64,000 bases of DNA from Escherichia coli (GTDB lineage: Bacteria; Pseudomonadota; Gammaproteobacteria; Enterobacterales; Enterobacteriaceae), in assembly GCF_048403405.1 (NCBI RefSeq), contig NZ_CP183129.1. One strand, 5' to 3'. The notes under the pieces are model-generated. The model was not told the origin of the DNA, searched no databases, and saw only the letters and a program-made list of their open reading frames with translations. The translations under genes and the position numbers were made by a program. Below are positions 29,541 to 36,787 of the stretch, one piece after another (the first letter of the stretch is position 1; each line of letters starts with the position of its first letter).

Positions 29541-29661
29541 GTTGGTTCAGTTGGTTCAGTTGGTTCAATTTGTAAAGAGCGTTGTTTTTATTGTGTTTTT
29601 TCTAAAATATTGAACCAACATCAACTCATTTTGAACCAACACAGCCCAGCTCTGAACCAAC
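29541..29661. repeat. Iteron array 1: three tandem GTTGGTTCA plus three spaced inverted copies (TGAACCAAC); crr-like
   Basis: GTTGGTTCA at 29541-29549, 29550-29558, 29559-29567; TGAACCAAC at 29611-29619, 29632-29640, 29653-29661. Confidence 0.8.
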
Positions 29662-29763
29662 AACACAGCGATAGATTTGTGATTGGTCTGTTATTTTCTG
29701 GCTGATATTTGAGCGTATAACAGTGTTATACAGTGGTATACTGTATGGATATTACTTACTGAT

Positions 29764-30219
29764 ATGGTCTTTGCAATGAGCAAATCTAATCTGATCGCGT
29801 TCCGCATCCCATCTGAATTGCAGGATGAGTTTAATCGGTCTGTTCTCGCTTCTGGAGGAGATAAAACCTCTTGGCTTGTTGATGCGATTCGCATGAAGCT
29901 GGGGCAGCCGGAAAAGTCTATTGATTCACGAATGCTTGGGCTGGTGGAGCGCATGGAAAAAGCCGCTGCGTCGCTTATTGCCGGAAAGCCGAACATCCCA
30001 CCAAAACCATATAACGAAACGGCAGTTATAAAGATCATTGCCGATACCATCCAACAGGGATTTGATAATGGGCGTGTGATAGCTGAACGGATCAATGAAG
30101 CAGGCTATCAAACAAAAGCTGGTAAAGCGTGGGATAAAGATATTTACAGCGCGTGGAAGCGTCAGGGAAGCAATGCTGAAAAGTTAAAAGCGGTGATTGA
30201 TTGTAAGGTCAGCGTATAA
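29764..30219 (+). CDS. Hypothetical protein with N-terminal ribbon-helix-helix-like DNA-binding motif, 151 aa
   Basis: N-terminus SKSNLIAFRIPSELQDEFNRSV...GGDKTSWLVDAIRMKL fits a beta-strand/helix/helix (Arc/CopG-like) pattern; first gene after iteron array 1. Start could be 29764 or 29776. Confidence 0.5.
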   Translation: MVFAMSKSNLIAFRIPSELQDEFNRSVLASGGDKTSWLVDAIRMKLGQPEKSIDSRMLGLVERMEKAAASLIAGKPNIPPKPYNETAVIKIIADTIQQGFDNGRVIAERINEAGYQTKAGKAWDKDIYSAWKRQGSNAEKLKAVIDCKVSV

Positions 30220-30298
30220 ACATGAGTGCCCATTGGAAAGCTGCTTGGGCTAATACCTTTATACACCATCAGGTGGTGACGATAGGTGAGGATCAGAC

Positions 30299-30499
30299 AT
30301 GAAAGGCAGAACGCCACACATTGAACATCAAGCCAACCACTTCTCGGATGTTCGCAATGAGATGATTGCCATTCGCGGTGATATGCACGGAATGGAGCGT
30401 CGCCTAGCAGATAAGATGGACGAGAATCAAAAGTGGATCATCGTCCTGTTGATTTTATCAATTCTTATCCCGCTACTTATCGCATTGGTCACAAAATGA
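30299..30499 (+). CDS. Small C-terminally anchored membrane protein (XhlA-like architecture), 66 aa
   Basis: Charged N-terminal region followed by a single C-terminal TM helix WIIVLLILSILIPLLIALV; resembles phage XhlA-type small membrane proteins in architecture only. Confidence 0.45.
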   Translation: MKGRTPHIEHQANHFSDVRNEMIAIRGDMHGMERRLADKMDENQKWIIVLLILSILIPLLIALVTK

Positions 30500-34918: not shown

Positions 34919-35595
34919 TAGAATCCAAGCCCCCCAACAAGACCAATAAGCCCACCACCAATAGCCCCGGCGACATTACCTATACCCGGAACAACGGAAC
35001 CAAGTTGCGCACCCGCTAAAGCGCCTGATGCCGCCCCACCAATACCACGCGCAAGACTGGATGGCTGCTGCGCCTGACCTGCACGAATAGCGCCAAGCCC
35101 CTGCAAGAGTTGTCCGGTATTATTGGCGTAGTTTTGCCCTGCTGTTGCCTGCCCTGATGCCGCATTCATCCCGACATTTAGCAGGTTTCCATAATTTTGC
35201 ATTTGCCCACTAAGCCAATTGTTATAAAGCATGGGCGCAATGGAAGATAACTGGTTACTGGTAGCTGTTGAGCCAAGCCCCCCGGTAGCTTCTGCTGAGA
35301 CAAGGTTCTGATAACGGGCCTGATCTGCCTGTGTTTTATATAAACCAGAACCAAAGAAATCATTCGCGGCTTTATTCTGCCCTTCCAGAGTCATCAGTCC
35401 TTGCAGTTGTTGTAAAGCAGGCAATCCGACTTCTGCATACGGCTTGAGATTATTCATCACCGTATTCCACTGCTCGCGCTGCAAATCAATTGCCTGCTGC
35501 TGGGCCTTCGCCTGGGCTTTAGAGGCACCACCATCACCGCCTTTTTCGTATACGGCACGATTGAGATGTTTATGAGCTATATGGGTAATTAACAT
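34918..35595 (-). CDS. Cargo operon gene 2: hypothetical 225-aa protein with C-terminal glycine-zipper segment; candidate ejection-protein (P22 gp7-like) homolog
   Basis: C-terminus GIGGAASGALAGAQLGSVVPGIGNVAGAIGGGLIGLVGGLGF is a glycine-zipper type membrane-inserting motif; Gln/Asn/Ala-rich body; overlaps upstream gene by 7 nt. Confidence 0.6.
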   Translation of the reverse strand: MLITHIAHKHLNRAVYEKGGDGGASKAQAKAQQQAIDLQREQWNTVMNNLKPYAEVGLPALQQLQGLMTLEGQNKAANDFFGSGLYKTQADQARYQNLVSAEATGGLGSTATSNQLSSIAPMLYNNWLSGQMQNYGNLLNVGMNAASGQATAGQNYANNTGQLLQGLGAIRAGQAQQPSSLARGIGGAASGALAGAQLGSVVPGIGNVAGAIGGGLIGLVGGLGF

Positions 35596-36050
35596 TCGCT
35601 GAGTTCCTTATATTGTTGCCGTGTTAACTGATAAAGCGTTACGCCGACGGGTTTACCACATCTGATATATGCATCGGCCAGGTGACCAACACGGGTAGCG
35701 CCAAGCAAACGGATAATTGCCCGTCCGTATTTCGTGGTGTCAGGAACCATGGTGATGCTGTTAAGGAATGGTGAGTTTTCGAGAAGCCATTTGCAGAACA
35801 ATCGATGCCCTTGCAGTGCATATTCACCACGGAATCCGGGGTCGTACACCGCATGGCATTCAACAATGCTATGCCAGAAGTTACGCACTTCATGAACGCC
35901 TGTCAGCACTAATCCTTCGTAGATGCCGAGATATACCGCATCAGGCTTGATGTAGTACGTGTGCCCCGGCTCAACAATATTTTCGGTATTGCCAGGCTCG
36001 TTAAGAAAGGCCTGTAATCGCACCGGGTTATCAATAAATTTTAGTTCCAT
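35589..36050 (-). CDS. Cargo operon gene 1: hypothetical 153-aa soluble protein
   Basis: First gene of the coupled four-gene operon; several conserved-looking His/Cys (HEVRNFWH, ECHAVYDPGF); no family recognised from memory. Confidence 0.55.
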   Translation of the reverse strand: MELKFIDNPVRLQAFLNEPGNTENIVEPGHTYYIKPDAVYLGIYEGLVLTGVHEVRNFWHSIVECHAVYDPGFRGEYALQGHRLFCKWLLENSPFLNSITMVPDTTKYGRAIIRLLGATRVGHLADAYIRCGKPVGVTLYQLTRQQYKELSEC

Positions 36051-36676
36051 GCGGTGCCATCCGTTTTCACATACAGCCTGCCAGCGCCTTATCTATTAAC
36101 CCTCGTGCAATTTCATGCAGAGTTGGCGCTACTCCAATTCCTGATTTTTTACGCTGCTCTTCCTGAATTTTCTTTATCGCTTCCATTTGCTTCTCACTTA
36201 TCAATACCGGCTTTACTGAAATAGCCATAACGCCCCCTTAGAACTGTATAAAACAACAGTTATTATAGTTTCGCAAATCGCAATATTCATCATCGTAATT
36301 GCAAAATATGAAACAAATAGCACAAAAAAATGCCACCGCTCAGTAGCTGGTGGCATCGTTCTGTGTGTCAGGTTTTGACAGGTTTTTTATGGACTCTAAA
36401 AACTATATTTATGGTGTCGCATTACTCTTTACGGCAGGCGCTTTTCAGTTCTGCCCTTGCTTCTGGCTCCATTGGTAATTTGATTCGCGATCAGCTATGC
36501 GGATGGTTTGCTGAACAGGCATAACAACTTCTCAGAGGCTGTTTTTTGAACTACGAAAATTTCGTAGTGCTCACTTTCAAAAACGTCACGCCCTTGTACA
36601 CAGGATTTTACGAAAGTCTCGTAAAACACTCTCTGATGCCAGCCAGGTGTTGTGCGCATCAATTCAGTCACATTGT

Positions 36677-36787
36677 GTTGGTTCAAAATACCGTGTTGTT
36701 GGTTCAGTGTTGGTTCAATAAAAAGAATAAAATCCTTATAAAACAATACTCTTTACAAATTGAACCAACTGAACCAACTGAACCAAC
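36677..36787. repeat. Iteron array 2 (ori-like), inverse arrangement of array 1, immediately downstream of the primase gene
   Basis: GTTGGTTCA at 36677-36685, 36698-36706, 36709-36717; tandem TGAACCAAC at 36761-36769, 36770-36778, 36779-36787; internal spacer CTCTTTACAAA is the inverse of TTTGTAAAGAG in array 1. Confidence 0.8.

Follow-up and report, generated by a model that had tools for sequence, protein, structure and literature searches.

Why does a phage satellite keep two mirror-image arrays of the same short repeat on either side of several kilobases of accessory genes, one of them next to its primase gene and the other at the far end? The question is raised by an island in the 64,000-nucleotide stretch of Escherichia coli DNA analyzed here (NCBI RefSeq assembly GCF_048403405.1, contig NZ_CP183129.1; hereafter the window), a piece of chromosome that is 100% identical to NZ_OZ040716.1. 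The island covers approximately 18 kb (about 28.6-46.9 kb of the window), lies between yicG, which is accompanied by an insertion of the IS66 family, and yicC, and is a phage-inducible chromosomal island (PICI) of the EcCIMP1 type, that is, a satellite of P22-like phages and not a P4-like satellite. On balance, the comparisons made here lead us to favor the reading that this element has a mirror-symmetric replication origin split by an accessory module, and that both halves would be bound by its fused primase-initiator (Pri-Rep) and would act together.

Two iteron arrays and their predicted initiator

The 9-mer GTTGGTTCA was found as 12 exact copies on the two strands of the window, all of them within positions 29541-29661 (array 1) and 36677-36787 (array 2); the chance expectation for a 9-mer is about 0.5 copies per 64 kb when both strands are counted. 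The equivalent locus of EcCIMP1 also has 12 copies, versus a mean of 0.29 in shuffled sequences. The two arrays are separated by 7016 bp, and each consists of a tandem triple and three spaced iterons in the opposite orientation around an AT-rich spacer of 43 nt (Table 1). An earlier sequence-only reading of this DNA had described two mirror-image arrays of six iterons each that share a mirrored spacer motif, and both statements were borne out, the motif TTTGTAAAGAG/CTCTTTACAAA being present in both arrays. The same reading had called array 2 essentially the reverse complement of array 1. This is correct for the iterons and for the outer 55-nt arms (29534-29588 and 36740-36794), which are 96% complementary, but not for the inner iteron spacing (21/21 versus 21/11 in arrays 1 and 2, respectively), nor for the sequence elsewhere: over about 130 nt, array 1 and the reverse complement of array 2 share approximately 72% identity, and the divergence is located in the rest of the spacer and in the inter-iteron sequences, the iterons and the outer arm being conserved. 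The arrays are therefore mirror images that have diverged, and neither is an exact copy of the other.

Array 2 begins 25 nt past the stop codon of the primase gene (36813-36815), in agreement with its earlier placement immediately 3' of that gene. The origin (ori) of PICIs is located immediately 3' of rep and always comprises two iteron sets around an AT-rich region (PMC6092414). Because both its position and its anatomy, with three plus three opposed iterons around the 43-nt spacer, match this published design, array 2 fits the known PICI origin. What the sequence-only reading had missed is that each of the two arrays alone has the full canonical layout of a PICI origin. For EcCICFT073, pri plus ori was shown to support plasmid replication, which is abolished by the loss of either (PMC6092414). 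The ori tested in that case is a compact mirror-symmetric block; the EcCICFT073 primase belongs to a different family (584 aa), so that this example supports only the general compact mirror-symmetric design. The locus resembles the origins of PICIs and of Staphylococcus aureus pathogenicity islands (SaPIs) in the location of ori 3' of pri-rep, in the opposed short iterons and in the AT-rich core (Ubeda 2007; PMC6092414; PMC9371898), but here the origin is present as two pieces 7 kb apart, each with the full layout, and accessory genes are found between them.

The candidate reader of the iterons is the product of the primase gene, a protein of 919 aa annotated as "TOPRIM and DUF927" protein that is 99% identical to the EcCIMP1 primase. 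Pfam domains identified in Pri-Rep are Zn_Ribbon_Prim (aa 35-70), Toprim_3 (aa 222-319), and the DUF927 helicase (aa 366-644), whereas no Pfam domain was detected in the C-terminal region (aa 645-919). Residues 8-362 can be aligned with the primase domain of the P4 alpha protein (33% identity, E 2e-41), and the remainder does not align, whereas residues 403-814 match the PDB entry 8tch_A, "Pathogenicity island protein." Among the closest known systems are the DUF927 MCM-like helicases Cch, encoded by the staphylococcal cassette chromosome mec (SCCmec), and SaPIbov1 Rep, to which Cch is reported to be related (PMC7581432). Pri-Rep shares with them the DUF927 domain, a weak structural match of its modelled C-terminal region to 5dgk and the sequence match to 8tch_A; it differs from them in that its helicase is fused to a P4-type Zn-ribbon/Toprim primase and in its Gram-negative host. 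The SaPI Reps are self-loading helicases that use a C-terminal winged helix to read iterons directly downstream of rep, and the SaPI origin has an AT-rich center with one of two hexamers loaded on each side (PMC7581432, PMC9371898). Sequence comparison identifies Pri-Rep as a homologue of these characterized self-loading, origin-binding helicases. In an AlphaFold2 (AF2) model, its last 70 or so residues form a beta-alpha-alpha-beta-beta arrangement of winged-helix-like topology, with predicted local distance difference test (pLDDT) values of 62-77.

Compact and split origins among relatives

Relatives were collected by a primase scan using one genome per species, which resulted in 64 loci, about 50 of them from Enterobacterales, and iterons were identified de novo as the commonest 9-mer downstream of each primase stop codon. 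An iteron array follows directly after this stop in every locus with enough downstream sequence. A second point that had escaped the sequence-only reading is the occurrence, in many relatives, of the two arrays side by side as halves of a single compact origin. In 22 loci from other Enterobacterales, both halves are located back to back in approximately 270 bp: three tandem iterons, an AT-rich spacer, and three spaced inverted iterons are followed by about 40 nt containing CTGGCTGGCAG, and then by the second half, in which two to three spaced iterons, a spacer, and three tandem iterons opposite to the first triple precede the sequence ACCTTTTTGCTTATATAG. The split layout was found in 11 loci as well as in EcCIMP1 and the window, with halves 0.4-10 kb apart, and the cargo between them differs between genera and between E. 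coli strains. The genera concerned are Cedecea, Leclercia, Lonsdalea, Chimaeribacter, Rosenbergiella, Serratia, Enterobacter, Erwinia, Citrobacter, and Limnobaculum. Both layouts recur on contigs of the IMG/VR database, with the triples at a distance of either 231 bp or 7.4-10.4 kb and always in an unchanged relative orientation. Split loci have the outer flank ACCTTTTTGCTTATATAG past the tandem triple of their distal array, and compact blocks have it past their last triple; array 1 of the window is therefore considered orthologous to the second half of a compact origin.

Compact and split loci differ in the spacer of this second half. In all 10 split loci in which it could be measured, the distal spacer has a length of 43-62 nt (43 nt in six of them) and an A+T content of 69-81%. 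The second spacer of compact loci is AT-rich in only 7 of 18 cases, whereas it is 34-38 nt long and GC-rich in the other 11. The corresponding one-sided Fisher test, calculated by hand on loci that are not phylogenetically independent, gave a p value of about 0.0015.

The two arrays also have separate histories. Proximal arrays compared with proximal arrays, and distal with distal, have identities of 0.8-1.0 across elements, versus 0.56-0.79 for the two arrays of one element. Since each array is closer to its counterparts elsewhere than to its own partner, the arrays are old, separately maintained paralogous units; a recent duplication and concerted evolution were both rejected on the same grounds. 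Array 1 is orthologous across at least eight genera, and the iterons stay exact while the surrounding sequence drifts.

The iterons of a given element covary with the C terminus of its initiator. Approximately seven distinct iteron cores, each with its own wing and recognition helix, were identified over 27 classified sequences, and the C termini fall into five motif groups. Loci with GTTGGTTCA encode the wing tip QRKSPR[IV] in 16 of 16 aligned proteins, and those with TGTTGTCTC the sequence GRVRE(D/G)G in six of six, with QGRV-RE in the two that were aligned; the switch between GTTGGTTCA and TGTTGTCTC thus maps to QRKSPRI/QGRV-RE. The iteron classes GTCGGTTC, (A/G)(C/T)GGGTTAT, and TGGGATAAG/TGGGCTAA each go with a helix and wing sequence of their own. 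In the C-terminal region, the first 200 alignment columns show 93% identity between the window Pri-Rep and that of locus L006, and yet their iterons differ; the differences between the two proteins lie in the last 70 or so residues and are most conspicuous at the wing tip. In two split loci with other iterons, the change is seen on both sides of the cargo: L056, split by 7.6 kb, has ACTTATCCC in both arrays, and L034, split by 0.4 kb, has GGTCGGTTT in both. As far as can be judged from these alignments, a change of iteron specificity is accompanied by changes in both arrays and in the 6-residue tip of the wing in the winged-helix-like C-terminal domain of Pri-Rep. The proposal of the sequence-only reading that the repeats are initiator-binding sites is in line with these data, given that both arrays are conserved across genera and follow the predicted specificity of this domain.

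Further observations were made on individual arrays. The motif TGGCTGGCA has six occurrences in the window versus 0.82 expected, five of them inside the island (29076, 36637, 37407, 38140, and 44069) and one outside (18460), and the same motif, CTGGCTGGCAG, sits at the exact center of the compact origins of relatives. The sequence ATTTGTAAAGA...TTGTTTT directly follows the tandem triple in both arrays of the window (29568-29588 and 36740-36760). All ten GTTGGTTCA-type split relatives compared (L009-L055) have kept it in their distal arrays, whereas L056 has not; it is also present in some proximal arrays, and may be bound by a host factor or be used for priming. The proximal array of an Erwinia metagenome-assembled genome (L047, 3988-4050) has seven tandem copies of GTTGGTTCA instead of three, with the distal array 1 kb away. 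Yersinia pekkanenii (L029, 7958-14207) has three origin-like arrays, each after a fragment of the primase 3' end (aa ~837-911), which is a tandem multiplication of a "primase tail plus ori" unit.

Possible roles of the distal array

The sequence-only reading had likened the two arrays to the ori and crr of phage P4. In the P4 GenBank record, crr (4291-4590) consists of two 120-bp repeats with five type-1 repeats each and is located immediately 3' of the alpha gene (4636-6969, minus strand), whereas ori, with six more type-1 repeats, is 4.7 kb away. The alpha protein reportedly binds both ori and crr, and crr is said to be required in cis. The architecture is indeed alike, in that two clusters of the same repeat lie several kilobases apart and one of them is 3' of the primase gene, but the resemblance is functional only. 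Homology to alpha is limited to the N-terminal primase domain; the helicase and origin-binding parts are unrelated by sequence, the window helicase being of the DUF927, SaPI-Rep/Cch type. The P4 repeat is an 8-mer in place of the 9-mer found here, the arrays of the window are mirror images with AT-rich cores, and the helper of P4 is P2-like instead of P22-like. None of the genes sid, psu, and delta is annotated in the island by the Prokaryotic Genome Annotation Pipeline (PGAP), a result based on annotation only, with no dedicated Psu/Sid profile search. Membership of the P4-like satellites was rejected on the basis of the helicase/origin-binding domains and of gene content.

Most likely, to judge from conservation and covariation, both arrays are initiator-binding origin units that are functionally analogous to P4 ori/crr. 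In the mechanism that we propose, Pri-Rep would read the 9-mer GTTGGTTCA via the wing of its C-terminal winged-helix-like domain. Array 2 would be the canonical PICI origin, in which opposed iterons flank a 43-nt AT-rich stretch able to melt, and array 1 would be the second half of the mirror-symmetric origin of the family, with the 7-kb separation resulting from the accessory module (orf151, a variable Abi/ImmA slot, and a P22-type ejection cassette) between the halves. Pri-Rep would bind both halves. The proximal one, because its position is invariant and it is always AT-rich, would be the primary initiation site. The distal one would act in cis with it, as does P4 crr, by protein-mediated looping, and, because a complete AT-rich spacer is kept whenever the halves are separated, it would probably be a second site of melting and helicase loading. 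It is conceivable, and proposed here only tentatively, that the split is itself functional, with Pri-Rep bridging both units and looping out the cargo such that initiation needs both, and/or with both origins firing around the accessory module.

Several points weigh against this reading. Twelve relatives have one array only within the DNA available, although this DNA stops after 5-6 kb in several of them (L003, L014, and L019), and in L028 and L036 the homologue of orf151, which normally abuts the distal array, is located at the very edge of the locus. For some elements, one array may nevertheless suffice. The AF2 model of the last 280 aa of Pri-Rep is of low confidence overall (pLDDT 57.8) and is interpretable only in the last 70 or so residues and the central helical part. 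Its best PDB match in Foldseek, the SCCmec Cch helicase (5dgk), is weak (E 2.6e-3, TM 0.36), and this search returned no clean winged-helix match. The suggested cooperation by looping is drawn solely from the analogy with P4, and covariation and conservation would argue for initiator binding and not for a role of the distal array in initiation as opposed to copy control or gene regulation.

The latter function has to be considered on its own merits. As a control or operator site, array 1 would serve Pri-Rep to titrate or handcuff the origin, for which the copy control of plasmids P1 (incA) and F (incC) is the model, or to regulate the divergent genes for PerC and orf151. Iteron plasmids do carry extra iteron arrays for negative control, and array 1 fills the entire intergenic space between the PerC start (29504) and orf151 (29764); moreover, the sequence on the PerC side of the tandem triple is conserved in all relatives, and homologues of orf151 adjoin the distal array in four other genera according to a tblastn map. 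However, consensus scans detected no sigma-70-like promoter around either array, including the flank at 29517-29540, which is weak negative evidence. In other split loci PerC adjoins the proximal array and the gene after the distal array varies, and a complete AT-rich spacer of 43 nt would be superfluous in a pure operator; this role is quite unlikely in our view. Alternatively, the arrays could be two independent, redundant origins, each a complete PICI ori firing alone, with the second as a back-up or as a means to speed up replication of the excised circle. Either array alone corresponds to the published minimal layout of at least two opposed iterons on each side of an AT-rich region (PMC9371898), and the distal spacer of split loci is always AT-rich and usually of 43 nt, like the proximal one. 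This redundancy is nevertheless unlikely: the compact relatives with a GC-rich second spacer therefore have no free-standing melting site there, and the conservation of their second half despite this spacer points to an auxiliary, cooperative ancestral role.

The two remaining explanations are very improbable. The sequence-only reading had suggested that the arrays form a long-range inverted repeat that could mediate inversion or recombination of the cargo, and they might equally be homology anchors for the swapping of cassettes between satellites. The 96% complementarity of the 55-nt arms would allow this, and a cargo that varies between genera and E. coli strains would be expected if the arrays were crossover points. 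The inversion was searched for with a synthetic junction composed of the PerC side, the 55-nt arm, and the reverse complement of the inner right flank. Its separate halves matched 594 of 5426 complete E. coli genomes, at a median of two places per genome, and the inverted junction itself had no match at >=80% coverage in any of these 594, all of which have the native order; being based on assemblies, this search would miss a transient low-frequency inversion. Annotation and PHROGs give no invertase gene in the segment or next to it, the arrays lack the concerted evolution that frequent exchange would produce, and the cargo variation in E. coli is located in an internal slot and not at the arrays. 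Just as improbable is a reading of array 1 as a relic without function, left by an old duplication or by the cargo insertion, to which the relatives in which only one array was found could point: six exact iterons amid diverged surroundings, orthology across genera, and, in L056 and L034, a switch of iteron type in step with the initiator all contradict this view. A reading in which both arrays are bound by Pri-Rep and act as halves of one origin remains the one that we prefer.

The satellite, its cargo, and the meaning of a proposed split origin

The features discussed are compiled in Table 1. The assignment is to the Gram-negative lineage of PICIs (Fillol-Salom 2018), in which a terminal integrase adjoins a small AlpA-type helix-turn-helix (HTH) regulator and transcription runs in a single direction towards pri-rep. 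It is based on the gene order, with an integrase at one end, an HTH regulator, and the remaining genes all on the minus strand down to the primase according to RefSeq annotation; on the size of approximately 18 kb, within the 10-20 kb or so typical of elements that lack the full structural and lysis set; and on the origin described above. Between integrase and primase are the HTH regulator, an AntA/AntB antirepressor, a DUF4222 protein, an Ash-family protein, and several small open reading frames (ORFs). The sole virion-related genes of the island are four P22-type ejection/gp14 homologues. EcCIMP1 of commensal E. coli MP1 is a functional PICI with the P22-like phage Kapi1 as its helper, which excises, induces, and transduces it (PMC11773190). 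It has the same gene order as the window element and the same 12 copies of GTTGGTTCA in two arrays, one beside PerC and one beside the primase stop, 8.4 kb apart, but differs in its integrase, its attachment site (tRNA-Thr versus yicC/yicG here), its gp16-region gene, and its PerC allele, which is 53% identical (Pick, Stadel and Raivio 2025). The article on EcCIMP1 makes no mention of an origin or iterons (PMC11773190).

Table 1. Coordinates of the arrays, genes, and motifs of the island within the window
Feature	Position	Strand	Description and source
Outer flank of distal tandem triple	29517..29540	-	ACCTTTTTGCTTATCTATATAATC on minus strand; directly upstream of PerC start codon; conserved in compact and split relatives
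Array 1, distal half-origin	29534..29666	.	Iteron starts 29541, 29550, 29559 (+; tandem triple 29541-29567); spacer 29568-29610; spaced inverted iterons 29611, 29632, 29653 (-)
Array 2, proximal half-origin, canonical PICI ori	36674..36794	.	Spaced iterons 36677, 36698, 36709 (+); spacer 36718-36760; iteron starts 36761, 36770, 36779 (-; tandem triple 36761-36787)
CTGGCTGGCA motif	36637..36645	-	Stays with proximal half here; marks center of compact origins
Pri-Rep, fused primase-initiator, 919 aa	36813..39572	-	Pfam; PHROG DNA primase
Putative winged-helix iteron reader, last ~75 aa of Pri-Rep	36816..37040	-	Wing tip QRKSPRI; AF2 model, wing-tip covariation
PerC-family regulator	29217..29504	-	Just outside array 1
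orf151	29764..30219	+	First gene inside the bracket, reads away from array 1; tblastn map
Variable accessory slot	30220..31373	+	orf66 30299-30499, orf139 30954-31373
P22-type ejection cassette	31392..36228	-	PHROGs, RefSeq annotation, phage matches
gp16-like gene	31392-33497	-	PHROGs
gp20-like gene	33497-34918	-	PHROGs
gp7-like gene	34918-35595	-	PHROGs
gp14-like/DUF2824 gene	35589-36050	-	PHROGs
Small ORF of ejection cassette	36067-36228	-	
Tyrosine integrase	45424..46683	-	RefSeq annotation; far end of island, beside yicC

Three small plus-strand ORFs are found between the ejection cassette and array 1. The orf151 product has no Pfam or NCBIfam family and only a marginal PHROG match of unknown function; its N terminus appears ribbon-helix-helix-like by eye, and its gene is preceded by the palindrome-rich stretch ACAGTGTTATACAGTGGTATACTGTATGG (~29720-29750). 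An identity with P4 ORF151, which is also of 151 aa, was rejected as there is no similarity. In L009, L012, L015, and L016, homologues of orf151 are located directly inside the distal array; those of L017, L018, and L033 are 2-9 kb away from a compact origin. The adjacent slot lies between orf151 and an orf139-like gene (corresponding positions L068, 1222-2184, and L069, 1225-2088). It holds a 66-aa ORF here, an Abi-family gene in E. coli WP2-W18-ESBL-08, and an ImmA/IrrE peptidase with a partner in TO6, and it looks like an anti-phage or accessory hotspot. Among the relatives of the primase, the P22-type ejection cassette is confined to Escherichia elements. In other E. coli copies the annotation gives its gp16 gene as a truncated pseudogene, and EcCIMP1 has a 906-aa protein with a lytic transglycosylase domain instead. 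A terminator-like hairpin with a T-run (36332-36347, minus, the coding strand) between array 2 and the cassette could insulate the origin from downstream transcription.

The arm-type repeat ATTATGTACACCnnTATGTACAC was found close to either end of the island (28810 and 46741) and probably corresponds to the arm sites of the integrase. The IS66-family element inserted at one end of the window copy, the PerC end, comprises ISEc23 tnpA, tnpB, and transposase genes (26177-28593). The gene for tRNA-SeC, selC (10098-10192, minus strand), a classic hotspot of island integration, is located about 18 kb from the PICI.

That PICIs have an iteron origin, and where it lies, was already known, as was EcCIMP1. 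In the open-access papers and bioRxiv preprints searched, no description was found of a PICI origin split into complete units kilobases apart around an accessory module, of a family-wide dimorphism between compact and split origins, or of a covariation between wing tip and iteron. PICI and SaPI origins have been described as a single compact block directly after the initiator gene. In this widespread enterobacterial family, the block turns out to be composite: its two units remain intact even where as much as 10 kb of exchangeable genes lies between them. For annotation, this implies that the array pair marks the accessory and defense slot and that a second array several kilobases away does not signify a second element. 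The 6-residue wing tip matched to a 9-mer amounts to a predicted specificity code. Furthermore, the family offers a natural system for the question posed by P4 ori/crr, namely, whether a self-loading helicase-initiator needs two clusters in cis, and a tractable satellite and helper are already at hand in EcCIMP1 and Kapi1 of E. coli MP1. If initiation does occur on either side of the module, the ejection cassette and the defense slot would be the first and most amplified DNA after helper induction, and the center of the origin would be a dedicated, replication-privileged cargo slot of this satellite family.

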